A DNA stretch of 64,000 bases from Streptococcus sp. (lineage in GTDB: Bacteria > Bacillota > Bacilli > Lactobacillales > Streptococcaceae). Position numbers and translations under genes: made by a program. Shown here one piece after another: positions 24,740 through 43,697 of the stretch (positions are counted from its first letter, which is position 1; every line of letters begins with the position of its first letter). The DNA lies in NCBI RefSeq assembly GCF_030528045.1, contig NZ_JAUMZR010000001.1, forward strand, positions 17,798-81,797, in the 5' to 3' direction. The notes under the pieces are model-generated. The model ran no database searches. It saw nothing but the letters and a program-made list of their open reading frames with translations, and had not been told where the DNA came from.

Positions 24740-25032
24740 TTTATCTTTCCTCCATAAGTTCTATTCTATTATTAATAGTAAACGTTTTCGGCAAAAAAAG
24801 CAAGTCTTTTATGTTGAAAAAAGAAAAATATGTTAAACGATTGCTATAAATCAAGTAAAGGAAATCTGGCAAATTTTCACGAAAAAATGAAAGAAAATGT
24901 AAATAAAAGCTTTGATTTCTCAAGTATAAAGATATTTTTTTGAGGAAAAAGAGAATGACCATCAAAAACGAGCAAAAATAATCAAAGAAAAAAGAAAGGA
25001 TTTAAAAATTTCTGCAAAACGCTTGACATATT

Positions 25033-25061
25033 TTAGGAACGTGATAAAATAATAGTCGTAG
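25033..25061 (+). promoter_or_regulatory. Putative scrA promoter
   Basis: TTGACA, a 16-17 bp spacer, then TAAAAT, about 60 nt upstream of the scrA start. A cre-like half-site lies nearby. Confidence 0.4.
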
Positions 25062-25116
25062 GGCGAATAAAATCGCTTTCAAACAAGAACAAAATTTTAT
25101 AAGGAGATTTTTGCAA

Positions 25117-27003
25117 ATGAACAATCAGGATATTGCAAAAAAAGTCATCGAAGCCCTTGGCGGACGTGAAAATGTCAACAGTGTTGCCCACTGTGCGACT
25201 CGTCTACGTGTCATGGTCAAAGATGAAGGGAAAATCAATAAGGAAGTGATTGAGAACTTGGATAAAGTTCAAGGAGCTTTCTTTAACTCAGGTCAATACC
25301 AAATCATCTTTGGTACTGGTACAGTAAACAAGATGTACGACGAAGTCGTTGCACTTGGTTTGCCAACCTCTTCTAAAGAAGACATGAAAGCTGAAGCTGC
25401 TAAACAAGGAAACTGGTTCCAACGTGCTATCCGTACTTTCGGTGACGTCTTCGTGCCAATCATCCCAGTTATCGTAGCGACTGGTCTCTTCATGGGTGTG
25501 CGTGGCCTTTTCAACGCTCTTGAAATGCCACTTCCAGGAGACTTTGCAACTTACACTCAAATCTTGACAGATACAGCCTTCATCATTTTGCCAGGTTTGG
25601 TTGTATGGTCAACCTTCCGCGTATTCGGTGGAAATCCAGCCGTTGGTATCGTTCTTGGTATGATGCTTGTTTCTGGCTCACTTCCAAACGCTTGGGCTGT
25701 AGCATCAGGTGGTGAAGTAATAGCTATGAACTTCTTTGGTTTCATTCCTGTTGTTGGTTTGCAAGGTTCTGTTCTTCCAGCTTTCATCATTGGGGTGGTC
25801 GGAGCCAAGTTTGAAAAAGCTCTCCGCAAAGTGGTTCCAGATGTCTTGGATCTCTTGGTGACTCCATTCGTGACACTTTTGGTCATGTCTATCCTTGGAC
25901 TTTTTGTCATCGGACCAGTCTTCCACGTCGTTGAAAACTACATCCTTATTGCTACAAAAGCGATTCTTGCCTTGCCGTTTGGTCTTGGTGGTTTGGTCAT
26001 CGGTGGGGTTCACCAATTGATCGTCGTATCAGGTGTGCACCACATCTTCAACTTGCTTGAAGTGCAATTGCTTGCTGCGGACCATGCGAACCCATTCAAC
26101 GCCATCATCACTGCAGCGATGACAGCTCAAGGGGCTGCAACGGTTGCCGTTGGTGTTAAAACGAAGAATCCTAAACTGAAAACACTTGCTTTCCCAGCTG
26201 CTCTTTCTGCCTTCCTAGGTATTACAGAGCCTGCCATCTTCGGGGTAAACTTGCGCTTCCGTAAGCCATTCTTCCTTTCATTGATCGCTGGTGCTATCGG
26301 TGGTGGATTGGCTTCTATCCTTGGACTCGCTGGTACTGGTAATGGTATCACCATCATCCCTGGTACAATGTTGTACGTTGGTAACGGTCAATTGTTCCAA
26401 TACCTTCTTATGGTAGCTGTATCATTCGTTCTTGGTTTTGCCCTTACTTACATGTTTGGTTACGAGGATGAAAAAGAAGTTGCTTCTGAAGTAGCGACAG
26501 AACGTTTGGTTCAAGAAGAAACAACTGGTAACATTCCAGTAGCTCCTCAAAGTGAAACAATCCAAACTCCAATTGTTGGGGACGTAGTTGCTCTTGAGAA
26601 TGTTAATGACCCAGTCTTTTCAAGTGGTGCAATGGGACAAGGGATTGCTGTAAAACCAAGCCAAGGTGTGGTTTATGCACCAGCTGATGCAGAAGTATCG
26701 ATTGCCTTTGCCACAGGACATGCTTATGGTTTGAAGACAGCAAATGGAGCTGAGATCTTGATCCACGTTGGTATCGATACAGTGACTATGAACGGTGAAG
26801 GCTTTGAACAAAAAGTTGCTCAAGGCGACAAGGTCAAAGCAGGTGATGTTCTTGGAACCTTTGACTCAAACAAAATCGCTGCTGCAGGTCTTGACGACAC
26901 AACAATGGTTATCGTAACCAACACAGCAGACTACGCTTCTGTGACACCAGTTGCAAGCGGTTCAGTTGTCAAGGGTGACGTGATCATCGAAGTGAAAGCC
27001 TAG
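25117..27003 (+). CDS. scrA: PTS sucrose-specific EIIBCA component
   Basis: EIIB Cys motif (NSVAHCATRLRV), a multi-TM EIIC and a C-terminal EIIA(Glc)-type domain. The ATG at 25117 is preferred over the TTG at 25111. Confidence 0.9.
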   Translation: MNNQDIAKKVIEALGGRENVNSVAHCATRLRVMVKDEGKINKEVIENLDKVQGAFFNSGQYQIIFGTGTVNKMYDEVVALGLPTSSKEDMKAEAAKQGNWFQRAIRTFGDVFVPIIPVIVATGLFMGVRGLFNALEMPLPGDFATYTQILTDTAFIILPGLVVWSTFRVFGGNPAVGIVLGMMLVSGSLPNAWAVASGGEVIAMNFFGFIPVVGLQGSVLPAFIIGVVGAKFEKALRKVVPDVLDLLVTPFVTLLVMSILGLFVIGPVFHVVENYILIATKAILALPFGLGGLVIGGVHQLIVVSGVHHIFNLLEVQLLAADHANPFNAIITAAMTAQGAATVAVGVKTKNPKLKTLAFPAALSAFLGITEPAIFGVNLRFRKPFFLSLIAGAIGGGLASILGLAGTGNGITIIPGTMLYVGNGQLFQYLLMVAVSFVLGFALTYMFGYEDEKEVASEVATERLVQEETTGNIPVAPQSETIQTPIVGDVVALENVNDPVFSSGAMGQGIAVKPSQGVVYAPADAEVSIAFATGHAYGLKTANGAEILIHVGIDTVTMNGEGFEQKVAQGDKVKAGDVLGTFDSNKIAAAGLDDTTMVIVTNTADYASVTPVASGSVVKGDVIIEVKA

Positions 27004-28945: not shown

Positions 28946-29077
28946 GTAAACTCCTCATAGATAGTATGATTCTACTATACCATATTTTGTGGAAAAAAAC
29001 TATCTGGATTATCTGACTGGCGAAATAAGTGTGGTAAAATGAGAATAAGAAAATGACGGTATAGAATGAGGGGTATC

Positions 29078-30878
29078 ATGTTAGGTTTAAACTTTAAAGG
29101 AAGCTGGCGCCAATATCAAAAACAGGTCTTGGATCGTTTTCAGGACTATCAAGCAGATGGTCATGTTCATCTAGTGGCTGCTCCAGGGTCTGGAAAGACA
29201 ACCATTGGTATCGAGCTAATCGCTCGTTTTGGCAACCCAGCCCTCATCTTAGTTCCGACTGTCACCATTCGTGAACAATGGGTAGATAGGATTCAAACTG
29301 CATTTCTAGGGGAGGGTCAGAGGCTTTCAGACCTCGTTTCCCAAAACTTAAAGGAGATGAAGACATTAACGATTGTGACCTATCAGGCTTTTCATAGCGC
29401 CATGAACCAATTGCAATCACAAGAAGATGGAGAAGCAGAAGATTTTGTGGGGTTTGATTTGCTTGCAAGCCTAAGAGCTCAGAAAGTTGCGACTCTTTGT
29501 TTGGACGAATGCCACCACCTGCGCAATGAATGGTGGAAAAGTCTGGAAGCCTTTCGCAAACAGTATGAACCGCTGCAAGTCATCTCCCTGACAGCGACAC
29601 CACCTTATGACAGCGAGCCTGAACTCTGGGAACGCTATATCCGTATGTGTGGGGAGATCGATCAAGAAATCACGGTACTTGAACTAGTCAAGGAAGACAC
29701 TCTTTGCCCTCATCAGGATTTTGTCTACATGTGTTCACCAACAGCTGAAGAGGCGGAACGTCTCAAACGGTTTGAGGAGACTAAGCGGGACTATATTCAT
29801 CACCTTATAGTCGATCCTGATTTTCAAACATTTGTAGTAGGGTCTAAGGTTCTCAAAGGGGATATTTCATCTGATTTGCTCTTAGAAGATCCCAAGTACT
29901 TGTCTGCTATGTTGATTTATATGCATTCTCAGGGGTTAACGATTCCTCCTTCTTTACAAAATTTACTGGGAACCCAGAACCTTCCAGCATTGACCTCCTA
30001 CTGGCTGGAGACGCTGTTGCAGAGCATACTCTATCAGACACCAGATTGGTATGAGGATCCAGATGGATATAGGAAAAAGTTAGAGGCTGACTTAAAGGCG
30101 CGTGGGTTGGTGGAAAAACGTCAGGTTTATCTGGTTAAGTCTAAGGCTTCTGACCAGCTTTTAACCCAATCTCTGGGGAAGTTGTCTGCCATTGCCGATA
30201 TCTTTTTGACGGAGTATGAGAGTCTAGGTCAGGAACTGAGACAGTTAGTACTAGCTGACTATATTCGCAAGGATTTTGCTGCCTATCTGGGAGATGATCA
30301 GGCAACCATTTCTCAGTTGGGGGGTTCTCCCTTATTTTGAAAGCATTCGTCGAAAAGCTCAGGAGCAAGAGATACCTGTGTCTTTGGCTGTTTTGACAGG
30401 TAGTGTCGTTATTTTGCCTACCGATGTGGCAGCAGAGTTGAAGGAGCTCTTGCCTCAGGTTCCTCTTAATTTCTCATCTATTGGTCACTTGGATCCAAAA
30501 GATTATGTGCAGGTTGGTTTTCCGAGCTCAGCTAAGGGAATCGTAGCGGCAGTGACGGAGCTTTTTCAACGAGGGCGGATTCAAGTCCTAGTCGGAACCA
30601 AATCTCTCCTCGGAGAGGGTTGGGATGCTCCTTGTGTCAATTCCCTAATCCTCGGAAGCTTTGTGGGGAGCTTTATGCTCAGTAACCAGATGCGTGGGCG
30701 TGCCATTCGTATCTGGCCGGGACATCCAGAAAAGACCAGTAACATCTGGCATCTGGTAGCCGTTCAAGCGCAGGCGCTTATCACTCTTCCTAGTGAGGAG
30801 CCTAGATCAGAGAGTAATCAGGATCTGCAGACCTTGTCGCGACGGATGGAGCATTTTCTTGGATTGGCCTATAAATAA
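29078..30878 (+). pseudogene. DEAD/DEAH-box superfamily-2 helicase, disrupted by a frameshift at a G6 tract
   Basis: Motif I VAAPGSGKT, motif II DECHH, motif III SLTATP and motif VI QMRGRAIR are spread across two overlapping frames (ORFs 29066..30340 and 30276..30878). The frame switch maps to the homopolymer GGGGGG at 30319-30324. Confidence 0.7.
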
Positions 30879-30888
30879 TAAGGAGAGT

Positions 30889-31716
30889 ATTGAGACCGGT
30901 TTGGATCGTTTGGATTTTCCAAAGCCCCCTTTTAAGAAAAAGCAAATTAGTGAGTACAATGAGCGAGTTAAGAGTCTCTCCAAGGATCGAGCAGGCTTGA
31001 GAAAAAAATGGCAGGAAGCTCTTGTCGTAGCAGATCAGTTCGAGATAGTTACAGAAGTCGCAACTCAAAAACAGAAAATTCCAGTCATGCTCTTGCTTGA
31101 TGCATTAAAATGGGTTCGCATGTCATTGCTCTTGTTAGCAGTGGATTTGTTGGTTTTGCTATTTAGACTGAGACTGATTGGTGTTTGGTGGCTTACGACA
31201 GTCTGTCTCATCTTTTTGGCCTTTGCATCTTGGCGCTACCTCCGCTATAAGAGTCCTTGTAAACGATTGCAGTCTCTGGGTGAGCAGATCCGAAAGGCTT
31301 TGCTAGATTCGGGGCATCTAACGGACAATCAATCCCGTGTTCAGGTAGAGGAGGACAAGGAAAACTACATGGTTTTCGCCTACCTCAAGGGAGGAAGCAT
31401 GAGGGACAAGGAGCTGTTTGCACAGACTGTGGGAGAGTTCTTTGCTCCAGTGGACAACCAGCGCTATCTCTTGAAGGCAGAGAAAGTCCGACAAGGTCAG
31501 TCACCTTACTATGCCGTGCCTAGTCTTTTTGAGAAGCGCAAGGAAGAAGCACAGAAATTCCTCGACTTTATGAGGCCAACTATCGGACGCTATCACCTCG
31601 TCTACACACGAACAGAGGCCGGACGGAAAACCCTTCTCGAAGCTCGTATCAAAGCTCTCTCCAATCAAAACGACCGTACCTTGACTAAGAAGAAGGTTAA
31701 AAATCGATTAGAGTAG
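30889..31716 (+). CDS. Hypothetical membrane-associated protein downstream of the helicase (or its C-terminal domain)
   Basis: The reading frame continues after the helicase's tandem TAA TAA stops and an AGGAGAG RBS, but no canonical start codon is well placed (ATT at 30889, TTG at 30901). Two predicted TM helices (LLLLAVDLLVLLF; WWLTTVCLIFLAFASW). Confidence 0.4.
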   Translation: METGLDRLDFPKPPFKKKQISEYNERVKSLSKDRAGLRKKWQEALVVADQFEIVTEVATQKQKIPVMLLLDALKWVRMSLLLLAVDLLVLLFRLRLIGVWWLTTVCLIFLAFASWRYLRYKSPCKRLQSLGEQIRKALLDSGHLTDNQSRVQVEEDKENYMVFAYLKGGSMRDKELFAQTVGEFFAPVDNQRYLLKAEKVRQGQSPYYAVPSLFEKRKEEAQKFLDFMRPTIGRYHLVYTRTEAGRKTLLEARIKALSNQNDRTLTKKKVKNRLE

Positions 31717-31727
31717 GGTAGGTAGCT

Positions 31728-31925
31728 ATTCGAAGTTTCGAAGATATGAATTTACTAAAGTTTATATGCATTCTAAACTTAGAATGGAAAGAAATACATA
31801 AATTTATGAGCATTCTAAGCTTCGAATAGTCTAGCTGAGAAAGTTTTGGGGTCTTCTAGTTTTCGAACAGTCATCTTTCTTAAAGTTTAGATGTATTCTA
31901 AGGCTAGAAAAGTTAAAATCTAAAA
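31728..31925. repeat. BOX-like tandem module repeat (boxB-like units)
   Basis: Three or more tandem imperfect units of about 45 bp (..tgcattctaaacttagaatgg.. / ..gagcattctaagcttcgaatag.. / ..gatgtattctaaggctagaaaag..) carrying cttcgaa palindromes. It marks the left edge of the accessory island. Confidence 0.5.
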
Positions 31926-32130
31926 ATAGTAAGAGTCTCTATCTGATAGACGGGTATGTTTCCAGTCAGATAGGGATTTTCTGTTTCTGAAATGACTGAT
32001 TTATCCTGTAAAAGTAAGAAATAGACTGAAAAAGTGCTATTGGGATGATAAAGTAGACAGTTGAGAGGATGAGTGTCCTAAGTTCTTTGCTATTTGTTAG
32101 AATTGTCTTATCAACTTAAAGGAGAAATCT

Positions 32131-32293
32131 GATGAAGAAAGATAAAGAAAATGAGGAAAGTATGCTATCGACACTTCCTCTATGGGGCCTCCTATTTTTG
32201 GTCTGTGTATTACTTCAAGTCTATGTAGGAAAGGATAGGCCTTTGATTCAACCTCCTAGACAAGGAAGCATTGTAAAAACAGATCAAAAATAG
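32131..32293 (+). CDS. Putative small membrane peptide (54 aa)
   Basis: An ORF below the track threshold: MKKDKENEESMLSTLPLWGLLFLVCVLLQVYVGKDRPLIQPPRQGSIVKTDQK. A GGAG-like RBS (aaggagaaatctg) is upstream. One hydrophobic helix. Confidence 0.3.
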
Positions 32294-32372
32294 GTCTATC
32301 TTCCAGAACTAATCCAGTCTTGGTTTGATAAAGAAAAAACTAAATGATTCGTTAAATAGAAAGGTTATCATC

Positions 32373-33134
32373 ATGACAAAAACATTCACTATCTGCCCTC
32401 TAAGCTACACAAACTCTACCAACCGCGAGTTTGAAAGTCTCATGGTAGATACGGGTCAACTACTAGAAGTTTTTGCCAAGGCACATAAGGACGAGCCTAT
32501 GTATAGCAAACATCTCGATTCCTTCAAGAGCAGGCTAGCAGACTTCCAAAGCCAACTCGCTATCGTCGAAAAGAAAGAGGAGACGAACCTGACCGAAGTT
32601 GATCGAAATCGTGACAGTGCCCTAGTCGGTCTCTTTACCCTTCATCGAGGATTTGCTAAGATTAAGGAGACCAAACTCAAAGAAGCCCATGAGACCTTGA
32701 AACCAGTCTTTGCCAAGTACAAGGACATCACCAAGCATAGCAATGGTGTGGAAACGGCAGAAATCAAGAGTCTGCTCAAAACCCTCAGTGAAGAACCCTA
32801 CCAAACAGCAGTTACTAGTCTAGGATTGACACCTATGCTGACGGAGGTGATCAGTGCGCAGGAGGAGTATGATAAGGTGGAAAGTCAGGCGCGTGCGCAT
32901 AAGTCTACCAAGGAAGTCGGCAAGACTAGACAAGTCCGTACCGAACTAACCAGCATCTACGACCTCTTTATGCGCTATACCGCAGCCAGCGCAGAAGCCT
33001 ATCCAGAAAAAGAACACCTGACCAAACTCCTCAAGGACCTGAACACAATCCGAGATAGCAAGCGCCGATTGAGTGGTTCGAGTAAGAAGGATAAGAAAGT
33101 GAAAGTAGAAGAAGCAGAACAAGTAGCAGGATAA
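32373..33134 (+). CDS. Hypothetical protein (253 aa, charged/alpha-helical)
   Basis: ORF track 32325..33134. The ATG at 32373 is preceded by GAAAGG. No recognisable catalytic motif. GC content is like the core genome. Confidence 0.5.
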   Translation: MTKTFTICPLSYTNSTNREFESLMVDTGQLLEVFAKAHKDEPMYSKHLDSFKSRLADFQSQLAIVEKKEETNLTEVDRNRDSALVGLFTLHRGFAKIKETKLKEAHETLKPVFAKYKDITKHSNGVETAEIKSLLKTLSEEPYQTAVTSLGLTPMLTEVISAQEEYDKVESQARAHKSTKEVGKTRQVRTELTSIYDLFMRYTAASAEAYPEKEHLTKLLKDLNTIRDSKRRLSGSSKKDKKVKVEEAEQVAG

Positions 33135-33225
33135 GAATAAACGTCTTTAGATATATTATTATCTAAAGGCGTTTTTTTGGTGGATTCGTGGTATAATTTT
33201 AGTATGAGATAATGGAGGAATAATA

Positions 33226-34230
33226 ATGAATATTCAATATTTCAATGTTTTTTTGTGTCGAAATGGTGAGAAGACAGATTATGATTTATCTAAGTTAATT
33301 GATAAAATTCGAGTATCTTCTTCTGTAGAAAGAACTGTAAAGTTAGGGAGTCAGCATACTATGTTTATGAATAATAGTAGAAACCCTTCAAGTAGTAAGA
33401 CGAGTGGTTCTTCTTTGGATGGTTTAGAGTATCTCCCTAGAAATAGGACAGTCTGGATTGGAAAGTATCGAAGTGAAAAACCATATGAGGGGAGGATAGG
33501 TGAAGAAGAAATTAAACAAATTGATGGAGACCTTTTCGAACCTAGTGTTTGTTTGATTATTCCTACATCGTATCTTTTTTTAATGGAGAGAAAGTTTTTA
33601 GGACCTTCAATAAACCAAATAGGAGAGTATTTATCAAGCTTTATAAAGAGTAACGATCCTAATGTAAAGTATTCGGTGAAATTTGAGCCTATGAAAACAG
33701 ATAGTTTAAAACCTTTGATAGAAGCTTCTGAGAGTATTAAATCAATCGTGATTCAGATTAAAAATGAAGGTTTTCAATTGTCAAGTTTATTTCCAGATAT
33801 TAATGATAGCAATAAAACACTATTAGAAAAGTTATTTGGTAATATGATTGAAGTGTCTGAAGAATTAGATATAAATACTACTACTGTAGCATTTAAGAAA
33901 AGTCGGTATAAAAGAGAAATGGATATAAAACGTGTTGATGGCATTTTAAAGTTATTAAACTCTTCAGATAAAAATTTAATTTCTGCAAAAGTTGAATTTT
34001 TAAATCCAGAGACACATAGATTTGATGAAGTGGATTTAAAGAAAGATGGTTTTTATATTTTGGAAAAAACTTCTTTAAAAACTGAGGATTTTGATAAATT
34101 AGCTAATCTAATGACAGCGCATTATTATGATGACCAGAATCGTAATAAAGATCTTTACTATACTTCGTTTGGTTCTTTGTTATCTGTTGATGAGAGTGAA
34201 TTTGAAATTGTAACTGAGAATAGCATATAA
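33226..34230 (+). CDS. Hypothetical protein (334 aa), AT-rich, island-borne
   Basis: Strong RBS GGAGG. GC is markedly lower than the flanking core. No identifiable domain. Confidence 0.55.
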   Translation: MNIQYFNVFLCRNGEKTDYDLSKLIDKIRVSSSVERTVKLGSQHTMFMNNSRNPSSSKTSGSSLDGLEYLPRNRTVWIGKYRSEKPYEGRIGEEEIKQIDGDLFEPSVCLIIPTSYLFLMERKFLGPSINQIGEYLSSFIKSNDPNVKYSVKFEPMKTDSLKPLIEASESIKSIVIQIKNEGFQLSSLFPDINDSNKTLLEKLFGNMIEVSEELDINTTTVAFKKSRYKREMDIKRVDGILKLLNSSDKNLISAKVEFLNPETHRFDEVDLKKDGFYILEKTSLKTEDFDKLANLMTAHYYDDQNRNKDLYYTSFGSLLSVDESEFEIVTENSI

Positions 34231-34259
34231 AAATCCAAAACTAGAAAGGAGATGATGTC

Positions 34260-34802
34260 ATGCTTAAATTTATTGATAAATATTTTTGGTGGAGTTTATC
34301 AATCATAATTGTATTAATTGTTGCAGTGTCTCTCTTTTTAGGAAATTATCTAGAGTTATATGATTGGTTTTACAAAAATGCCTATACAAATAATGCGAAT
34401 TTAGTGACCATTTCAACAGTTTTTATTGGTATTTATTTTTCTTTATACGGTTTTTTATTGAGTTCAAATACAAATTCCCTTATATCAAAACTTAAGTTAA
34501 AAGAATATAAGAGACTAGTCTCAATAGTTAATAGAGGATTTATATCTAGTTTTATTATCGTTATATTTTCTTTTTTTAATGAAAATATCTATAATTGGGT
34601 AAGTGAAATTTATATACTGTTCTTGTTTTTTATTTTTCTCTTACTTATTGGTTCTGCAATTCAAATAGCTATTTATTTTACATTACTTTTTAGATATGAT
34701 TTGAATAAAAAATATAATAGTTTTGATGAAGATATAAAAAAAGAAATTCTAGATGACGAATTGCGTAAAAAGTTAAAACAATTTTTAGATAGAGAGTTAT
34801 AA
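34260..34802 (+). CDS. Hypothetical 4-TM membrane protein (180 aa)
   Basis: RBS AAAGGAG. Four hydrophobic helices and a charged C-terminal tail. The gene ends 4 nt before the hsdS start. Confidence 0.55.
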   Translation: MLKFIDKYFWWSLSIIIVLIVAVSLFLGNYLELYDWFYKNAYTNNANLVTISTVFIGIYFSLYGFLLSSNTNSLISKLKLKEYKRLVSIVNRGFISSFIIVIFSFFNENIYNWVSEIYILFLFFIFLLLIGSAIQIAIYFTLLFRYDLNKKYNSFDEDIKKEILDDELRKKLKQFLDREL

Positions 34803-34808
34803 GAGTTG

Positions 34809-35465
34809 ATGAAAAGAATGATACCTAAAATTATTTTTAATAGAGAAAAGAAAGATTGGATTAAAAGACCTTTATTATCTAATATAGAAAAAATCATAGA
34901 TTACAGGGGTAGAACACCTAAAAAATTAGGTTTAAATTGGAGTGATACAGGTTATCTAGCTCTATCTGCTTTAAATGTAAAGAATGGCTATATTGATTTC
35001 AAGGCCACTGCCAATTATGGAGATCAAGAATTGTATGAACGATGGATGGGAGATAATCATCTTCATAAAGGACAAGTTGTTTTTACTACTGAGGCACCGA
35101 TGGGTAACGTTGCACAGATTCCTAATGATGATTTGTATATTCTAAGTCAACGTACGATTGCCTTTGAAGTTAAACGTGATTTAATTCGGGAAGATTTTTT
35201 AGCCACTTTATTGCGTAGCCAAAAAATATTTAATGAATTAACTTCTTTATCTAGCGGAGGAACTGCAAAAGGAGTTAGTCAAAAATCTTTATCAAATCTC
35301 AAAGTTTGTTTGCCCACATCATTAGAAGAACAATCCGCTATTGGCACCCTTTTCCGCATCCTTGACGACCTTCTAGCAAGCTACAAGAATACCAATCTCT
35401 CAAGGCGACCATGCTTTCTAAGATGTTTCCAAAAGCTGGACAGACAGCACCTGAGATTCGTTTAG
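34809..35465 (+). CDS. hsdS: Type I restriction-modification specificity subunit, N-terminal half (TRD1 plus central conserved region)
   Basis: A TRD-like region followed by the conserved LPTSLEEQSAIGTLFRILDDLLAS central repeat. The frame is lost at about 35372-35380. Confidence 0.7.
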   Translation: MKRMIPKIIFNREKKDWIKRPLLSNIEKIIDYRGRTPKKLGLNWSDTGYLALSALNVKNGYIDFKATANYGDQELYERWMGDNHLHKGQVVFTTEAPMGNVAQIPNDDLYILSQRTIAFEVKRDLIREDFLATLLRSQKIFNELTSLSSGGTAKGVSQKSLSNLKVCLPTSLEEQSAIGTLFRILDDLLASYKNTNLSRRPCFLRCFQKLDRQHLRFV

Positions 35466-36037
35466 ATGGATTTGAAGGTGAGTGGGAAATAAAGAAATTT
35501 AAGAGCATAAGTAATAAAAGAGGGAAATCGAACAGCAAAGGGTATGATTATCCAGCATATTCTGTTAGCAATCAGAGTGGGTTGATTCCTCAATCGGAAC
35601 AATTCGAAGGAAGTCGTTTAGAAAATCTTGAAAAAACGTCATATAAGATAGTTGAACCAAACGAGTTCGCATATAATCCAGCTCGTATAAATGTCGGGTC
35701 CATTGCATTTAATGATCTACATGAAACGGTAATAGTTAGTTCTTTGTATGTCATTTTTTCGTTAGATAACTCAATGGATAACAACTACGCGCTACTGTTT
35801 ATAAAATCACCAGAGTTCAATAAAGAAGTTAGAAGAAATACGGAGGGGAGTGTGAGGGAATATCTTTTTTATGAAAACTTCGCAAATGTTCGGATTCCAA
35901 TACCTCCGTCACTCGAAGAACAACGTGCCATCGGCTCCTATTTCTCTAACTTCGATAACCTCATCAACTCTCACCAAGAAAAAATTTCTCAGCTTGAGAC
36001 ACTGAAAAAGAAACTCTTGCAGGATATGTTTATATAA
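35411..36037 (+). CDS. hsdS: Type I restriction-modification specificity subunit, C-terminal half (TRD2 plus distal conserved region)
   Basis: KMFPKAGQTAPEIRLDGFEGEWE marks the canonical start of TRD2. The C-terminal conserved repeat PPSLEEQRAIGSYFSNFDNLINSHQEKISQLETLKKKLLQDMF is present. It lies in a -1 frame relative to the first half. Confidence 0.7.
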   Translation: MLSKMFPKAGQTAPEIRLDGFEGEWEIKKFKSISNKRGKSNSKGYDYPAYSVSNQSGLIPQSEQFEGSRLENLEKTSYKIVEPNEFAYNPARINVGSIAFNDLHETVIVSSLYVIFSLDNSMDNNYALLFIKSPEFNKEVRRNTEGSVREYLFYENFANVRIPIPPSLEEQRAIGSYFSNFDNLINSHQEKISQLETLKKKLLQDMFI

Positions 36038-36052
36038 AAGGAGTGCAGTAAA

Positions 36053-36967
36053 ATGTCAAAAGTAAAATCAGAAACTCTAAAGAAAGAAGAAAAACCTGTA
36101 GTAGCAATTTGCTATGATTTTGATACAACGCTGTCTCCTGATGATATGCAAGCCCAAGGATTTATACAGAAGCTTGGGTATGAAATCAGTGAATTTTGGA
36201 AGAAATCCAATGGTTTTGCCAAGGCTAATAATATGGACAAGAACCTTGCCTATATGTTTACGATGAAAACAGAATCTGCAGGAAAGGTTTTATATACAAA
36301 GACAGAGTTAGCCAAGTTTGGTTCAGAGGTAGAACTATTCCCAGGAGTCAAAGACTGGTTCGAACGCATTCGAAAATATGGTGAAGATAACGGAGTTATT
36401 GTTGAGCATTATATCATTTCATCCGATTTGAAAGAAATGATAGAGGGGACTTCAATAGCTAAAAATGGTGCTTTTAAGAAAATTTATGCGACTTCTTTTT
36501 ATTGTGATGAAAGTGGGGTTGCGGTCTGGCCAGCTCAAGTAGTGAATTACACCAATAAGACTCAATTTCTTTTTAGAATTACCAAAGGTATTTTAGATGT
36601 CAATGACGATGCAGTGAATGATTTTTTTGCTGAAAGTGATTTACGAGTTCCTTTTAGAAATATGGTTTACTTAGGGGATAGTGATACAGATATTCCATGT
36701 ATGAAGCTAGTCAAAACAAGAGGTGGCTACTCTATCGGTGTATTCAATCCAAAAACCAATGACAGAAAGAAAGTTCACAAAATGACTCAGGATAATCGTA
36801 TTGATTATTTTGTTCCAGCTGACTACTCAGAAAATACAGAACTTGATAAACTAATCAAGACGATTATTAAAAAGGCGGCTTATAATGAATTGTTAGAAAA
36901 CAAGAAAAATGCTGATAAACTTGAAGCAAACTTAAGAAAGCGAAAAAGAAATCCAAAACTAAGATAA
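36053..36967 (+). CDS. HAD-superfamily hydrolase (phosphatase), island-borne
   Basis: Motif I DxDxT is present as VAICYDFDTTL (D22-F-D24-T-T). Motif IV GDxxxD is present as YLGDSDTDIP. A lysine-rich C-terminal tail. AT-rich. Confidence 0.65.
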   Translation: MSKVKSETLKKEEKPVVAICYDFDTTLSPDDMQAQGFIQKLGYEISEFWKKSNGFAKANNMDKNLAYMFTMKTESAGKVLYTKTELAKFGSEVELFPGVKDWFERIRKYGEDNGVIVEHYIISSDLKEMIEGTSIAKNGAFKKIYATSFYCDESGVAVWPAQVVNYTNKTQFLFRITKGILDVNDDAVNDFFAESDLRVPFRNMVYLGDSDTDIPCMKLVKTRGGYSIGVFNPKTNDRKKVHKMTQDNRIDYFVPADYSENTELDKLIKTIIKKAAYNELLENKKNADKLEANLRKRKRNPKLR

Positions 36968-37041
36968 TTATTTGCTAAATTAAAAGAATACCGATTAAGA
37001 TTTATCGATGCTAGTATATTTATATACATAAAGGAGTTACC

Positions 37042-37797
37042 ATGGTATCTGTAACACAACGTATAAAAGAAATTAACCAACCTCGAGGTGGTTATCTGAC
37101 CATCAAGTTATTTTCAGTAGAGCAGTTCGAAGATCACAGAGTTCTGCACGCTGTAGAGTCTGTATCTCCTAGTTTAGTGGGGATTTGTGTGGACTACTTG
37201 ACTCGTTTTATGAAAGGGGCAGAAGTCCGTGATGCTTTCAGAATTTCTCTCATGGGAGCTCAGATGGTTGGTATGGGAGACCTAGCAGAAGCACTACTCG
37301 ATTTGGTGACAGGATTGGATGACTTATCGATAGAAAGTGCTTGTCGTCTAGCGTCCTTTGATGTCGTTTTTCGTGCGGGGAAACAGTATTATAAGCCTTT
37401 TGAGGAAATTTCAGTGGATGCCGAAACGGTAGAGAATATTCGTATCATGGTAGAGCGAAGTCTTTGCTTTTTCGACCTCTATGGTCCTTTGGTAAAGGAT
37501 GGCTTTCATTTTCTTGGAGGTTATACAGACACGATTGATAAGGGTGATGGAGATTTTCTGACCAAGGATACATTATGGGATTTTAAGGTGACTAAAACAG
37601 CTCCTAATAAAGACCACACACTACAAGTCCTTGTATACTATATCATGGGTTTACATTCCTTTGATCCTGACTTCCTTTCTATCGAAAATCTTGGATTTTA
37701 TAACCCTCGAAAAAATATCGTTTACCAACTTCCGGTCTCTTCTATTCCTATAGATTTGATTCGAACGATTGAAAATGAAGTGATTTGCTATAAATGA
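37042..37797 (+). CDS. Hypothetical protein (251 aa) with a possible PD-(D/E)xK-like motif
   Basis: Good RBS AAAGGAG. The segment GDGDFLTKDTLWDFKVTK resembles the D..(D/E)xK core of restriction-endonuclease-like nucleases. This is a tentative call. Confidence 0.45.
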   Translation: MVSVTQRIKEINQPRGGYLTIKLFSVEQFEDHRVLHAVESVSPSLVGICVDYLTRFMKGAEVRDAFRISLMGAQMVGMGDLAEALLDLVTGLDDLSIESACRLASFDVVFRAGKQYYKPFEEISVDAETVENIRIMVERSLCFFDLYGPLVKDGFHFLGGYTDTIDKGDGDFLTKDTLWDFKVTKTAPNKDHTLQVLVYYIMGLHSFDPDFLSIENLGFYNPRKNIVYQLPVSSIPIDLIRTIENEVICYK

Positions 37798-37840
37798 TTG
37801 CTTGTTTAAAAATAAATTGCAAAACTTAGAAAGAAACATT

Positions 37841-39442
37841 ATGGAAACAACACAAACTTCCCAGTCGCTCTACCAAGCCCTGTGGAACTCAGCGGATGTT
37901 CTCCGCTCCAAGATGGATGCTAATGACTATAAGTCCTATCTCTTGGGCATGGTCTTTTATAAGTATCTGTCAGACAAGATGCTCTTTTTCGTGGCTGAGA
38001 CTATGGAAGAGGGGACAGATAGTCTTGAGGATACACTTGAGGTCTATCGTAACTACTACGAGGATGCGGATACTCATGAGGATCTGGTCTCTGTCATGAA
38101 CGATGAACTCAACTATATCATCAAGCCAGACTTGACCTTTACGGCTTTGGTAGCGCATGTCAATGAGGGGACTTTTCAGCTAGAAGATCTGGCTCAAGGT
38201 TTTCGTGATATCGAGCAGAGTGACGACCTTTATGAAAACCTCTTTGAAGATATCGACCTTTACTCTAAAAAGCTAGGGGCGACTCCGCAAAAGCAAAACC
38301 AAACGGTAGCAGCGGTCATGAAAGAGTTGGCTGTGCTAGATGTGGCTGGTCATGCTGGTGATATGTTGGGGGATGCCTATGAGTATCTGATCGGTCAGTT
38401 TGCGACTGACTCGGGTAAGAAAGCTGGTGAGTTCTATACGCCTCAGCCTGTTGCCAAGCTCATGACGCAGATTGCCTTTTTGGGTCGTGAGGACCAGCAA
38501 GGATTTACCATCTATGATGCGACTATGGGTTCTGGATCTCTCTTGCTCAATGCCAAGAAATACTCTCATAAACCGCAAACGGTTGTCTACTTTGGTCAGG
38601 AGCTCAATACCTCCACTTATAACTTGGCTCGGATGAACATGATCCTACACGGCGTTCCAGTTGAGAATCAATTTCTCCACAATGCCGATACCTTGGATGA
38701 AGACTGGCCGACACAGGAACCGACCAACTTTGATGGGGTTCTCATGAATCCTCCATACTCTGCCAAGTGGTCTGCAAGCTCTGGCTTCCTGAATGATCCT
38801 CGTTTCTCTCCTTTTTGGAAACTGGCACCACAATCCAAGGCTGATTTTGCCTTTCTCTTGCATGGTTACTACCATCTCAAGCAAGATAATGGAGTTATGG
38901 CTATCGTCCTTCCCCACGGTGTTCTTTTCCGTGGCAATGCGGAGGGAACCATTCGTAAGGCCTTGTTAGAAGAAGGAGCTATTGATACTGTTATCGGTCT
39001 ACCTGCCAATATCTTCTTTAATACCAGCATTCCGACCACGGTCATCATTCTCAAAAAGAATCGAACTAATCGTGATGTTTACTTTATCGATGCCTCTAAG
39101 GAGTTTGATAAAGGGAAAAACCAAAATATCATGACGGATGCCCATATCGACAAGATTCTGGAAGCCTACAAGTCTCGTGAGGAGATTGATAAGTTTGCCC
39201 ACCTAGCAAGCTATGAAGAAATTGTCGAAAATGACTATAACCTCAATATCCCTCGCTATGTAGACACCTTTGAGGAAGAAGAAGTCGAGCCGCTGACAGA
39301 CATCGTCAGCAAAATTAAAGACACAAATAAAGCTATCGAAAGCCAAACAGCTTCCCTACTTGAAATGCTGAACCAACTCCACGGAACCACACCAGAAGCC
39401 GATGCCGAACTCAAAGAGTTTTTGAAAAACTTTAAAGGGTGA
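37841..39442 (+). CDS. hsdM: Type I restriction-modification N6-adenine DNA methyltransferase subunit
   Basis: HsdM N-terminal domain (LWNSADVLRSKMDANDYKSYLLGMVFYKYLSD), an AdoMet motif (DATMGSGSLL) and the catalytic NPPYS motif (LMNPPYSAKW). The ATG at 37841 is preferred over the ORF-track TTG at 37802. Confidence 0.9.
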   Translation: METTQTSQSLYQALWNSADVLRSKMDANDYKSYLLGMVFYKYLSDKMLFFVAETMEEGTDSLEDTLEVYRNYYEDADTHEDLVSVMNDELNYIIKPDLTFTALVAHVNEGTFQLEDLAQGFRDIEQSDDLYENLFEDIDLYSKKLGATPQKQNQTVAAVMKELAVLDVAGHAGDMLGDAYEYLIGQFATDSGKKAGEFYTPQPVAKLMTQIAFLGREDQQGFTIYDATMGSGSLLLNAKKYSHKPQTVVYFGQELNTSTYNLARMNMILHGVPVENQFLHNADTLDEDWPTQEPTNFDGVLMNPPYSAKWSASSGFLNDPRFSPFWKLAPQSKADFAFLLHGYYHLKQDNGVMAIVLPHGVLFRGNAEGTIRKALLEEGAIDTVIGLPANIFFNTSIPTTVIILKKNRTNRDVYFIDASKEFDKGKNQNIMTDAHIDKILEAYKSREEIDKFAHLASYEEIVENDYNLNIPRYVDTFEEEEVEPLTDIVSKIKDTNKAIESQTASLLEMLNQLHGTTPEADAELKEFLKNFKG

Positions 39443-39535
39443 TGGGCTTAATTGATTCGCTCATAATTCTCTCGTTTTTAAAAATACAACTTTATTTCCA
39501 TATTTCCTGGAAACAGATAGATAGCAAGGAGAAAG

Positions 39536-40111
39536 ATGGAACAAACTAACCAAAAATCCCAGTGCCAGCAACTCTGGGCTAGAAACAAATACCTCGTTTT
39601 GAGCCATTCTAGCAATATTTACAATGAGATTCGCCAATACTTGAAGAATGAACAGGTGGAGCTGAGTCAGGTTTAAGAGATGATTGACCGTGCCTGTCAA
39701 ATCCCAGAACACAATGGTCAGGTTTGCAATGCCTTCCAGCATGTTTGGGGCTATTTCAAAAAGAAAGCGACAGATGCCGAGCGTAAGGACTATATGCTCT
39801 TACTGGATCGCTACCGCTTTGGTCAGGCTTCCAAGGAAGACTTGATCGCTAAAACTCGAGACTTGCTTGATCGCTATCCAAATACCTACTTGCAACATTC
39901 TACTTTACTGAAAGGAGACTCCCATGAGACTTTGGCACGAGGCCTTGATTTCACAACTTCCCCGTCCGCAGCTTTTAGGCCAACATCGAGAGTGCTGTGC
40001 CCTGCGTGGCAATGGTTGGGGCAGAAAGCATGCGACGGTGGACTATGTCTTTACTCACTCGCCCTATCACCTCTATGCTTATCATCGCTTGATCATGGAG
40101 GAGATGGATAA
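39536..40111 (+). pseudogene. DUF1722 (YbgA-like) protein gene with an in-frame TAA nonsense codon
   Basis: A 47-aa ORF (MEQTNQKSQCQQLWARNKYLVLSHSSNIYNEIRQYLKNEQVELSQV) and ORF 39680..40111 lie in the same frame, separated only by TAA at 39675-39677. Together they align to the DUF1722 region of E. coli YbgA (ARHKYLLMAHSQQGYREL...NVLQHLLGYFKRHLSADER..YL). Confidence 0.55.
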
Positions 40112-40289
40112 CCGTGGCTACAATGTCAGTCCAGAGTGGTTGGACAAGAACTACCGTGGTAAGACTTGCTCTTCTTATCAAGACTTAGCAGAGGAGAAGC
40201 TAGGCAAGCCCATCTATAGTGAGCATGATGCAGGATACTATGAGGAGTGTCTGGCTAATCTCCGTGAGAAAGGGATTAAGCTGAAGTAA
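39924..40289 (+). CDS. Conserved hypothetical protein (TIGR02328-like), overlapping the DUF1722 3' region
   Basis: Strong RBS AAAGGAGA 5 nt upstream of ATG. The N-terminus MRLWHEALISQLPRPQLLGQHRE is typical of a small streptococcal family often found next to DUF1722 genes. Confidence 0.55.
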   Translation: MRLWHEALISQLPRPQLLGQHRECCALRGNGWGRKHATVDYVFTHSPYHLYAYHRLIMEEMDNRGYNVSPEWLDKNYRGKTCSSYQDLAEEKLGKPIYSEHDAGYYEECLANLREKGIKLK

Positions 40290-40442
40290 GAGTCAGGATT
40301 ATCTCTAATTTATAACTCTTCTCATAATTTTTTCGAATAATAAAAATGAGACCTTTAGAATGATTCTAAGGTCTTCTTTTTATGGGTATTAGGATTTACT
40401 TTCAATAACTTTTAAGTTATAATTAAATTGAAAAGAGGTTGC

Positions 40443-40811
40443 TTGGTGCATACAATTTACTTCTATAAGGACAAAAATGGAAATGAGCCAGTATTGGATT
40501 ATATGAGAGAATTGGCTAGTCGTAAAAGTAAGGATAGTCGCATAAAACTCAATAAACTAAACGACTATATCGAGCTACTTAATCAGCATGGGACTAGAGC
40601 TGGTGAACCCTATATTAAACATTTAGAAGATGAGATATGGGAACTAAGACCTCTGAGGGATAGGATTTTATTTATAGCGTGGGTTGATGGGAGTTTTGTT
40701 CTCTTACATCATTTTGTTAAAAAGACTCAGAAAACTCCTAGGAGAGAAATTGAAAAAGCCAAGCGTGAACTGAAGGACATAAAAGAAAGAGGGTTAAGTG
40801 ATGAAGAATAG
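40443..40811 (+). CDS. Type II toxin-antitoxin system RelE/ParE-superfamily toxin (HigB/Gp49-like)
   Basis: [22 protein letters not shown]...[13 protein letters not shown]...[28 protein letters not shown] matches the Gp49/HigB-like pattern. The upstream-toxin, downstream-HTH order is typical of higBA. The start (TTG at 40443 or GTG at 40446) is uncertain. Confidence 0.65.
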
Positions 40812-41094
40812 TGCCATTGGAAGTAATTGGAAGGATGTTCGGACAGAACTCTTTACCAAGGAAGAAATTCTTGAAAGCGATATGCGAGTGGCTATTATGA
40901 GTGAGTTAATTGAGGCTAGGCATGAGCAAGGTATCAGTCAGAAAAAGCTAGAGGAACTCAGTGGAGTAAGCCAGCCTGTTATAGCTAGGATGGAGACAGG
41001 AAAGACCAGTCCTCAGTTGGATACGGTCTTAAAAGTTTTAGCCAGTTTAGGAAAGACACTAGCAGTCGTCCCACTTGAACAGGAAAAAAGTTGA
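40798..41094 (+). CDS. XRE-family HTH antitoxin (HigA-like)
   Basis: HTH sequence [27 protein letters not shown]. Overlaps the toxin gene by 14 nt. Confidence 0.65.
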
Positions 41095-41348: not shown

Positions 41349-41365
41349 TATAGTTTCAAACTATA
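41349..41365 (+). promoter_or_regulatory. Met-box (MtaR/MetR-type operator) upstream of metE
   Basis: Perfect 17-bp palindrome TATAGTTTCAAACTATA about 85 nt upstream of the metE start. It matches the streptococcal methionine-regulon box consensus TATAGTTtnaAACTATA. Confidence 0.6.
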
Positions 41366-41447
41366 TCAAAGCCTAATTATTTACAATTATACAGACAGTT
41401 TCTTTTCTGTTAAGATAGTTTCAACAACAAATTTTGGAGGACACATC

Positions 41448-43697
41448 ATGTCAACTACAATCATCGGTTTCCCTCGTTTGGGCGAATTCCGCGAATTGAA
41501 ATTTACAACTGAAAAATACTTTAGAAAAGAAATCTCAGAAGAAGAACTTTTAGCAGCAGCAAAAGACTTGCGTGCCAAACACTGGAACATTGTCAAAGAA
41601 AAAGGCATTACTGAAATTCCATCAAATGACTTTTCTCACTATGACAACTTCCTAGATGCTGCTTTCCTCTTTAACGTGGTGCCAGCTTCTGTTCAAAACT
41701 TGGAATTATCAGAACTTGAACGCTACTTTGCTTTGGGACGTGGTTACCAAGGAGAAAAAGGGGACGTTCGTGCCCTTCCGATGAAGAAATGGTTCAACAC
41801 CAACTACCACTACATCGTTCCTAAATTTGAAAAAGACACTCAAGTTAAATTGGCTGGTCACAAGATCTTTGATGAGTTCCAAGAAGCCAAAGAACTTGGT
41901 CTCAACACTCGTCCTGTTCTTGTAGGTCCATTCACTTTCCTTCAATTATCAGATTTTGAAGAAGGCGTGAAAGCAGAAGACTTCGTAGATAGCTTAGTGG
42001 CTGCATACCAAGAAGTTTTTGCTAAATTGGCTGAGCTTGGTGCGACTCGTATCCAATTGGACGAAGCAGCTCTTGTCAAAGATTTGACAGCTGAAGAAAA
42101 AGCTCTCTTCTTGAACCTCTACAACAAACTCTTGGCTGACAAAAAAGGTCTTGAAGTCTTGCTTCAAACTTACTTCGGTGACGTTCGTGACGTCTACTCT
42201 GACCTTGTGAACTTGCCAGTAGATGCCATTGGTTTGGACTTCGTTGAAGGTAAAAAAACTCTTGAACTCGTTAAAGGTGGTTTCCCAGCTGATAAGACTC
42301 TCTATGCAGGTATTGTCAATGGTAAAAACATCTGGCGAAACAACTACGAAAAGAGCTTGGCTGTTCTTGAGCAAATCCCAGCTGAAAACATCGTATTGAC
42401 AAGCTCATGCTCACTTCTTCATGTGCCATTTACAACTGCTAACGAAGAATTTGAACCAGCTATCTTGAACCACTTTGCCTTTGCAGTTGAAAAATTGGAA
42501 GAACTTCGTGACTTGGATGCTATCCGAAATGGTCAAGGTGCAGAAGCACTTGCAGTTAACAAAGAACTCTTTGCGACTGAGCGTGTGGGTGAAAATGCAG
42601 AACTTCGTGCGCGCATCGCTGGATTGACTGACGCAGACTACACTCGTTTGCCAGCCTTTGCAGAACGTGAAGCTATCCAAGAAGAAGCCTTTAAACTTCC
42701 AGCTCTTCCAACAACAACCATCGGTTCATTCCCTCAAACTAAGGAAGTCCGTGCCAAACGTTTGGCTTACCGTAAGGGTGAATTGTCACAAGAAGAGTAC
42801 GATGCCTTTCTTGCTGAAACCATCGACGAATGGATCAAATGGCAAGAAGAAGTTGGATTTGACGTGCTTGTACACGGTGAGTTTGAGCGTAACGACATGG
42901 TTGAGTACTTCGGTCAAAACTTGTCAGGTTACCTCTTCTCTAAGAATGGTTGGGTACAATCTTACGGTATGCGTGGGGTGAAACCACCAATCATCTGGGG
43001 TGACGTCACTCGTCTTAACCCTATCACTGTCAAATGGTCTAGTTACGCACAAAGCCGTACTGACAAACCTGTTAAAGGTATGTTGACAGGACCTGTTACC
43101 ATCCTTAACTGGTCATTCCCACGTGAAGACATCTCTATCAAGGACTCAACTCTTCAAATCGCCCTTGCTATTAAGGATGAAGTTCTTGACCTTGAAGCTG
43201 CAGGTGTGAAAATCATCCAAATCGACGAGGCTGCTCTTCGTGAGAAATTGCCACTTCGTCGTAGCGACTGGTACGAAGACTACCTTGACTGGGCTATTCC
43301 AGCCTTCCGCTTAGTACACTCTACAGTAGCGCCAGATACTCAAATTCACACTCACATGTGTTACTCAGAATTTACAGATATCATCCCAGCCATCGACAAC
43401 ATGGATGCGGACGTTATTTCCTTTGAAGCAAGCCGTTCAAACCTTGAAATCTTGGACGAACTCAAAGCGAAAAACTTCCAAACAGAAGTGGGACCTGGGG
43501 TTTACGATATCCACTCACCTCGTGTGCCAAATGAAGGCGAAATCGACCACACAATCGATGCTATTCTTGCCAAAGTTCCAAGCAAGAAAGTTTGGATCAA
43601 CCCTGACTGTGGTTTGAAAACACGTGGTATTCCAGAAACAAAAGAAAGCTTGATCCGCCTTGTCGAAGCAGCAAAAGCTGCGCGTGAGAAATTATAA
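41448..43697 (+). CDS. metE: 5-methyltetrahydropteroyltriglutamate-homocysteine S-methyltransferase (cobalamin-independent methionine synthase)
   Basis: 749 aa two-domain MetE with Zn-binding residues (H..C..E..C context: HTHMCYSEF...DCGLKTR). Confidence 0.95.

Follow-up and report, generated by a model that had tools for sequence, protein, structure and literature searches.

Genes nested within BREX, DISARM, and Type I restriction-modification (R-M) loci have been catalogued on the principle of guilt by embedding by Payne, Hughes, Fineran, and Jackson, who curated 145 "phage defence candidates" (PDC; bioRxiv 10.1101/2024.01.29.577857). Only seven Hma-embedded systems were tested in that study, with PDC-M67, PDC-S34, and PDC-S61 not among them; loci with pseudogenes were left out, and the supplement lists PDC-M67 solely as cassette CAS_00206, with 35 instances and no functional note (10.1101/2024.01.29.577857). 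All three candidates occur in the locus analyzed here. The window, i.e., the whole 64,000-nucleotide (nt) stretch of Streptococcus sp. DNA that was analyzed, contains a hypervariable segment of a Streptococcus oralis-group chromosome, flanked by a helicase pseudogene on one side and by the conserved DUF1722/Pyr_excise/metE block on the other. With a probability of roughly 80%, we consider this segment the local version of a chromosomal defense hot spot, in which a decayed R-M system still carries intact guests, comprising a proposed Rex-type PDC-M67 pair and two single-gene candidates.

The four uncharacterized genes interleaved with the hsd genes all match PDC models of PADLOC, nearly from end to end: PDC-M67A (33226-34230; 2.4e-119, residues 1-327 of 334), PDC-M67B (34260-34802; 5.2e-50), PDC-S34 (36053-36967; 3.7e-156), and PDC-S61 (37042-37797; 1.3e-114). 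These and all other genes of the segment and its flanks up to metE (29-44 kb) lie on the + strand, to which the features given below also refer. M67A, M67B, S34, S61, and hsdM have exactly the lengths of their intact homologs. Beside the four interleaved genes stands a fifth uncharacterized one, encoding a DUF6261 protein (32325-33134; Pfam 2.7e-36) and followed by a strong terminator (33139-33174). NCBIfam and PHROGs yielded no family for M67A, M67B, S61, or DUF6261, and PDB chains contained no sequence match to M67A, S34, or S61. An earlier sequence-only reading of this DNA had named prrC as an example of an embedded gene, but the guests are PDC-M67, S34, and S61, and PrrC-like content is absent from the PADLOC matches.

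Judging from the genes that are left, the host R-M system has lost its restriction function in this strain and retains at most a methyltransferase remnant. The absence of hsdR can be traced to a junction at 31717-31757, which was aligned with a locus carrying the gene (L066, one of the comparison loci described below) and with two lacking it (L017 and L005). Here the helicase stop codon directly abuts a repeat array, exactly as in R-M-less loci, whereas hsdR-containing loci are approximately 3.05 kb longer at this point, with an HsdR of 996-1004 amino acids (aa) encoded precisely between helicase stop and repeat. No HsdR domain (HSDR_N, T1R_D3, or EcoR124_C) was found in any open reading frame (ORF) of the window. 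The hsdS gene (34806-36037) now consists of two overlapping ORFs, 34806-35465 and 35411-36037, each with a Pfam Methylase_S match, owing to a 13-bp deletion after position 35389, within the central conserved region, when compared to the intact 410-aa allele of L090/L093 (93% identity). Thus, the split hsdS, the lack of hsdR, and the presence of four interleaved uncharacterized genes are as the sequence-only reading had described them. The hsdM gene, which it had likewise listed, is present (37841-39442) and intact, encoding 533 aa from its ATG, the same length as in relatives, with matches to Pfam N6_Mtase (2.4e-107) and HsdM_N as well as to TIGR00497 (358 bits, compared to a cut-off of 243). 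Of the components of a complete Type I system, HsdM is therefore in place, while HsdR and a single intact HsdS with two target-recognition domains are missing. The decayed locus appears to be type IC-like, an assignment that rests only on the C-terminal domain match of HsdR in relatives.

Decay at this locus is recurrent, since two metagenomic loci (L089 and L091) carry a different, 1-nt lesion in hsdS, and hsdM is reduced to remnants in L026, L039, L054, and L080. Furthermore, all lesions of the window recur in L108, a read-level Logan assembly of SRR24915844 in which 21,005 bp are 100% identical to the window; although L108 may derive from the same isolate, this identity argues against assembly artifacts.

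The nature of the site became apparent from 80 species-representative loci of the S. oralis/mitis group, which were anchored on the C-terminal portion of the helicase and extracted with 10-kb flanks. The left flank (ROK, a VTT-domain gene, and the helicase) and the right flank (DUF1722, Pyr_excise, metE, and metF) are conserved across these loci, and the gap between them measures anywhere between 1.4 kb and more than 10 kb. None of the recognized genes is present in 13 loci and DUF6261 alone in 21, whereas the R-M family of the window occupies 12, a second Type I family 20, and a third Type I family 14. The three Type I families at this site are unrelated to each other: the second is exemplified by L001 (10971-19784) with the order AbiH-hsdM-RhuM-hsdS-hsdS'(half)-hsdR, and the third by L025 (11049-19132) with hsdR-hsdM-hsdS followed by an AAA_21/AAA_15 ATPase and a 249-aa gene. 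In the 12 loci of the window's own family, hsdR comes straight after the helicase, followed by an optional DUF6261 gene, a cassette, hsdS, a second cassette, and hsdM. The contents of these slots in relatives include GmrSD_C with SIR2 and HerA, AbiH-like genes, a YobI-like NTPase, an SF1 helicase, a KAP NTPase, DUF4435/AAA_21, as well as S34 and S61. Complete alleles of the same backbone were found in S. mitis and in metagenomes, and in Streptococcus sp. H31, the entire composite (hsdR-M67A-M67B-hsdS-HAD-250aa-hsdM) is located at an unrelated chromosomal site. Variable contents at a fixed site thus define a defense hot spot with an R-M operon carrying guest cassettes. DUF6261 was detected in 32 of the 80 loci, 21 of which are devoid of any R-M genes. 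The comparison, together with the PADLOC matches, supports what had been proposed from the letters alone, namely an accessory, variably present defense-type island around a Type I R-M system with embedded anti-phage candidates. The presence/absence check suggested for the mitis/oralis group revealed extreme polymorphism in content; gene order is not universally conserved with uniform GC content, and the unknown genes do not all fall into ordinary metabolic families.

Pairwise alignments showed that the locus is a mosaic. The window is 95% identical to L090 from DUF6261 through hsdS, after which identity is lost across slot 2 and returns in hsdM; with L063/L046, by comparison, it shares 94% identity from the last 120 nt of hsdS through S34 and S61 into hsdM. 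The identity breakpoints are located at the 3' end of hsdS and the 5' end of hsdM. From these alignments, cassettes appear to be exchanged by homologous recombination, for which the flanks and the conserved termini of hsdS and hsdM are putative anchors. The base composition is similarly patchy: against a window mean of 42.9%, the GC content drops to 22-33% between 33.2 and 35.0 kb and stays at 33-38% as far as 37 kb, so that the AT-rich block previously claimed for about 33.2-36.9 kb is borne out by the profile. Individual genes range from M67B (22.1%) and M67A (29.5%) over S34 (34.3%), hsdS (35.6%), and S61 (39.9%) to hsdM (45.4%) and DUF6261 (approximately 45%), the last two being host-like. 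No integrase, transposase, recombinase, tRNA gene, or attachment repeat was found within or adjoining the segment (ORFs at 29-41.5 kb). Rather than a classical mobile island or a recent mobile arrival, the segment is an R-M locus that has decayed at a hot spot of recombination.

Among the guests, the PDC-M67 pair allows the most specific interpretation. M67A (DUF6731) is cytosolic, and the 180-aa M67B contains four transmembrane (TM) segments and a charged C-terminal tail according to its hydropathy profile; the two genes are 29 nt apart. Upstream of M67A, behind the terminator at 33139-33174, a putative promoter and ribosome-binding site (33189-33219) can be read from the sequence, consisting of an extended -10 element (TGgTATAAT, 33189-33197) and GGAGGA (33214-33219). 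Among 1.84 billion representatives, only 74 clusters (50% identity) belong to the M67A family (Pfam DUF6731), which is therefore a rare one; close homologs exist only in streptococci. In S. mitis, the pair occupies the same slot of complete hsdR-hsdS-hsdM loci, and in S. suis it is found at another site in the order hsdM-hsdS-M67A-M67B-Fic-hsdR. With the composite of Streptococcus sp. H31, which occupies a third site, M67AB is embedded in three differently organized Type I systems. The cassette is AT-rich in every host. Even M67A homologs of 30-33% identity have an M67B-like protein with four TM segments encoded directly downstream (phmmer 1e-16 to 1e-23), and this partner is conserved in all contexts examined; M67B is thus an obligate 4-TM partner of M67A. 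A distant pair (30% identity; L097, 1752-5053) lies directly after a holin and an amidase gene, which suggests a prophage-borne copy. Separately, a member of the M67B family (L096, 1842-2516) matches Pfam DUF2254 above threshold (1.9e-7), a sequence match which hints that the M67B 4-TM module is akin to the N-terminal region of a larger family of membrane proteins.

To obtain a structural view of M67A, an AlphaFold2 model was built from a 57-sequence alignment (predicted local distance difference test [pLDDT] 88.6, predicted template modeling score [pTM] 0.78); it superseded a first model from a shallow alignment of 16 sequences, which had a pLDDT of 60 and was unusable. A Foldseek search with this model returned RexA (E 1e-7, probability 1.00), followed by RdgC, and these are the same structural relatives as given by the RexA structure paper (PMC11077077). 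In addition, five uncharacterized phage proteins in BFVD match the model at E 6e-8 or better. By its predicted model, M67A therefore has a RexA-like two-domain fold with a split globular and a dimerization domain. The combination of this fold with the 4-TM partner M67B makes PDC-M67 most likely a Rex-type abortive-infection pair. In view of the sequence-level results given below, we put this with some restraint: PDC-M67 probably works like RexAB, but we do not count it among the members of that family on sequence grounds.

The two guests of slot 2 are single genes. S34 (304 aa) is a HAD-superfamily phosphatase-like protein (Pfam HAD 4.2e-7), whose motifs D22-F-D24-T-T, S123/S124, and G208-D-S-D-T-D213 are invariant in 14 diverse homologs. 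Phosphatase chemistry is therefore well supported by the sequence motifs. The S34 family is large and highly conserved (at least 8000 matches); the gene is part of the S. salivarius arrangement hsdR-AbiH-x-hsdS-S34-[Gp49/HTH toxin-antitoxin]-hsdM and occurs alone in Lachnospiraceae. S61 (251 aa, no Pfam family) partially matches the PADLOC model RTasPDDEXK, a PD-(D/E)xK model from DRT systems (2.6e-9, residues 163-235), and its residues D169, D171, D180, and K182 (GDGD...WDFK) are invariant in 20 homologs. From these motifs, S61 appears to be PD-(D/E)xK nuclease-like and to have nucleic acid as its probable target of cleavage. In total, 1714 homologs were detected, with 55-60% identity across Firmicutes and in some cases an N-terminal HTH_17 domain; they are encoded alone or near an AlwI R-M system and a Shedu-like gene. 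PDC-S61 is mentioned once in the literature searched, in a survey of S. thermophilus. For both proteins, context alone points to a role in defense and to candidate substrates.

Taken together, we propose the following model. The hot spot is bounded by rok-VTT-(helicase) to the left and by DUF1722-Pyr_excise-metE to the right, and its complete allele consists of hsdR, an optional DUF6261 gene, slot 1, hsdS, slot 2, and hsdM, with the slots holding interchangeable candidate anti-phage cassettes. In slot 1, M67A, the putative sensor and DNA-binding component, would act as a RexA-like cytosolic dimer that senses a DNA or protein-DNA intermediate induced by the phage and then activates the four-helix membrane protein M67B, so that the membrane could be permeabilized or depolarized and phage replication halted at the cost of the infected cell. 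The slot 2 proteins would function independently, with S34 possibly acting on a nucleotide or on a phosphorylated phage or host factor. Whereas the topology of M67B, its linkage to M67A, the conserved motifs, and the embedding can be read directly from the data, and the fold of M67A from its predicted model, we infer the defense activity, the trigger, and the substrates. Going one step further, PDC-M67 would represent a deeply diverged chromosomal branch of RexAB in Firmicutes that lives as a guest in Type I R-M loci, and M67, S34, and S61 would have been kept by selection as functional genes after the loss of restriction; to this extended proposal we assign an even chance.

Several observations weigh against the defense hot spot with a Rex-type pair. 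Among 50,697 phage and 72,556 plasmid records, tblastn with M67A retrieved no homolog, and the literature searched contains no phage test of PDC-M67, PDC-S34, or PDC-S61. At the sequence level, hhalign gave a probability of 3% for the M67A profile against the single lambda RexA sequence and of 0.6% for the M67B family against RexB; the M67 proteins of the window do not match the Pfam families RexA (PF15969) or RexB (PF15968), nor does the M67B family match RexB, and the Rex models of PADLOC do not match M67. Even the TM-scores of M67A against RexA are low (0.39-0.46), which a hinged two-domain protein would explain. One of the 57 M67A family members does match PF15969 (E 0.0093) and, as RexA had been named beforehand from structure, this single match counts as a weak supporting hint. 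Since RexA shares its fold with RdgC, the fold of M67A is also compatible with a non-defense role in DNA transactions. Furthermore, S34 and S61 homologs are found solo in ordinary chromosomal contexts as well and, as several of their neighbors are pseudogenes, the embedded genes might merely not have decayed yet.

Some of these points would fit an explanation in which the guests are accessory or selfish hitch-hikers rather than immune effectors, R-M loci being tolerant of insertions: M67A, together with its membrane partner, would then modulate recombination or anti-restriction in an RdgC-like manner, S34 would serve as a housekeeping phosphatase, and S61 would be a nuclease for repair or mobile DNA. 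Besides the fold common to RexA and RdgC and the solo homologs in non-defense neighborhoods, this would account for the 55-89% identity of S34 and S61 across genera, which is unusual for fast-evolving immune genes, and it would be in line with the report that DNA binding by RexA does not correlate with exclusion (PMC11077077). We nevertheless regard it as unlikely, because the slot neighbors are overwhelmingly known defense genes (SIR2-HerA, AbiH, GmrSD, KAP, and ABC ATPases), M67AB recurs in three differently organized Type I systems, an S61 homolog lies beside an AlwI R-M system and a Shedu-like gene, and the pairing of an A protein with a 4-TM B protein is the same as in validated Rex-type systems.

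Two further explanations concern the state of the locus itself. That a mobile element recently brought in a fully functional defense island which is still restricting would agree with the low GC content of M67AB, hsdS, and S34 and with the composites that S. suis and Streptococcus sp. H31 carry elsewhere in their chromosomes. Yet restriction is impossible with hsdR absent and hsdS frameshifted, the GC content of hsdM and DUF6261 is host-like, no integrase, transposase, tRNA gene, or attachment repeat is present in or beside the segment, and the 80 genomes show conserved flanks with allelic replacement at a fixed site; such an arrival is therefore quite improbable. We give even less credence to the idea that the R-M system is actually intact and that the missing hsdR and the lesions in hsdS, helicase, and DUF1722 are sequencing or assembly errors. 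Only one helicase frameshift, located in a G homopolymer, is of the kind expected from such errors, while the same cannot be said of the 4-bp insertion, the 13-bp deletion, the base substitution, or the clean absence of 3 kb. Moreover, L108 repeats all of them over 21 kb, even if it may be the same isolate, and decay is also seen in the different hsdS frameshift of L089/L091 and the hsdM remnants of the four other loci. Thus, a decayed R-M locus with intact defense guests remains the interpretation we prefer.

The borders of the variable region follow from this comparison. Since DUF1722 and Pyr_excise (39536-40289) belong to the conserved flank, the variable region proper spans approximately 31717-39470, and its right edge is formed by the hsdM stop rather than by higA, up to which the sequence-only reading had extended the island. 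On the left, the SF2 helicase pseudogene (29066-31716; Pfam ResIII and Helicase_C) is broken into three ORF pieces, while relatives encode a single intact ORF of 877-890 aa. The homopolymer frameshift noticed previously is an additional G in a G-run at 30319, and it is accompanied by a 4-bp insertion at 30871-30874 (in comparison to L001/L004/L037). The helicase was considered as a diverged HsdR and rejected, as it lacks HSDR_N and T1R_D3, starts directly with the ResIII motor, and co-occurs with true HsdR in relatives. Intact versions contain two hydrophobic TM-like segments in the C-terminal third. In S. mitis, the gene is variable (absent from L081-L084, present in L085-L086), and weak PbeA-like matches were obtained with PADLOC; the flanking helicase may be another defense-type gene rather than a housekeeping one.

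The helicase is followed by four degenerate copies of a 42-nt direct repeat (31758-31913; 68-77% identity between copies), which had been called BOX-like. This label finds no support: the repeat is specific to this locus, where it is kept in place in relatives, has no other copy in the window, and has no Rfam match, although it was not compared directly with the BOX consensus. The Rfam scan of 28-45 kb detected no family at all, neither for the repeat nor for a riboswitch upstream of metE. Between the repeat and DUF6261, a small ORF (32132-32293; 53 aa, one hydrophobic segment) was called, which is kept between hsdR and DUF6261 in relatives; it is found at the same position in L081-L086, where it is called as a 71-aa gene, and in L108.

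On the right, DUF1722 (39536-39940, by Pfam) does carry the nonsense mutation that had been reported, an inactivating change from CAA to TAA at 39674-39676 (all 36 relatives among the 37 sequences compared have CAA or CAG), but the gene is part of the core flank and not of the island. In relatives, it encodes 134 aa and forms a conserved pair with the Pyr_excise gene beside metE, with an overlap of 17 nt. The TGA stop of relatives reads CGA in the window, where the ORF past the nonsense codon extends to 40111. The Pyr_excise/TIGR02328 gene (39924-40289; Pfam 3.2e-24, NCBIfam 4.3e-61) is present in every locus that reaches far enough. Beyond it, a toxin-antitoxin (TA) pair was identified at 40428-41094, consisting of a Gp49/HigB-family toxin of approximately 121 aa (PF05973, 1e-19) and a downstream HTH_3 antitoxin of 97 aa (PF01381, 6e-13), with genes overlapping by 14 nt. 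The pair shows the HigBA-like arrangement of a Gp49/HigB-family toxin adjoining an HTH antitoxin, with activity being predicted. While its identity thus agrees with the sequence-only reading, its assignment to the island does not, since it constitutes a separate small variable module of which relatives contain both genes, the antitoxin alone, or neither. In S. salivarius (L102/L103, 9103-9775), the TA pair is located between S34 and hsdM, with approximately 75% nt identity to 40329-41088 of the window; it therefore acts as another guest cassette of this R-M family. Finally, upstream of metE (41448-43697), the palindrome TATAGTTTCAAACTATA at 41350-41366 coincides with the Met-box that had been noted there, and we take it to be a Met-box by its consensus.

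Elsewhere in the window, a second low-GC stretch (31-34%) was observed at 24500-25250, upstream of a phosphotransferase system (PTS) gene at 25111-27003, and a 738-aa ORF (55516-57732) shows a partial match to the PADLOC model PDC-S33 (2.7e-14, residues 197-335).

The locus adds another example to a known phenomenon, and PADLOC models already exist for all of its parts. Two points go beyond the catalogue, namely that PDC-M67 can be assigned to the Rex type by the fold of a predicted model and that the guests stayed intact after their host lost hsdR and hsdS. The former gives a PADLOC candidate that so far was only numbered a testable mechanism and would extend Rex-type systems to oral streptococci. 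The latter provides a natural case of guests outliving their R-M host and bears on whether embedded systems depend on the host system; if the extended proposal above is true, embedded defenses would be autonomous of their host, and the decayed scaffold would persist mainly as a landing pad for recombination. Furthermore, the hot spot, which is well bounded by the helicase and DUF1722/metE and in which three Type I families and many Abi-type cassettes alternate, should be useful for mining and comparing defense cassettes in naturally transformable commensals and pathogens.

In comparison to described systems, the TA pair resembles HigB/HigA-like modules and is embedded within the Type I locus in S. 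salivarius, whereas in the window it lies outside, past two core genes. The R-M genes are closest to the EcoR124I type (type IC): HsdR of the complete alleles in relatives contains HSDR_N, ResIII-SWI2/SNF2, T1R_D3, and EcoR124_C, HsdM of the window is a TIGR00497 equivalog, and HsdS comprises two target-recognition domains around a central conserved region. Different from this type is the order hsdR...hsdS...hsdM with large inserts and, in the window, the lack of hsdR and the split of hsdS in its central conserved region. With the embedded-defense Type I loci of Payne et al. and the classical PrrC in EcoprrI, the locus shares same-strand cassettes nested among hsdR, hsdS, and hsdM, while it differs in that the host R-M system is decayed, the guests are intact, and a PrrC-like anticodon nuclease is not among them. 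Finally, the M67 pair resembles the Rex-type systems of lambda (RexA/RexB), mycobacteriophage Sbash (gp30/31), and Pseudomonas putida (RexABpp; PMC12894663) in having an A protein with a small 4-TM B protein encoded immediately downstream, although sequence-level similarity is confined to one weak match and M67B has an additional charged C-terminal tail. Whereas the Rex genes of lambda belong to the immunity region of a prophage, next to cI, the M67 pair is chromosomal and resides inside an R-M locus of a Gram-positive coccus.

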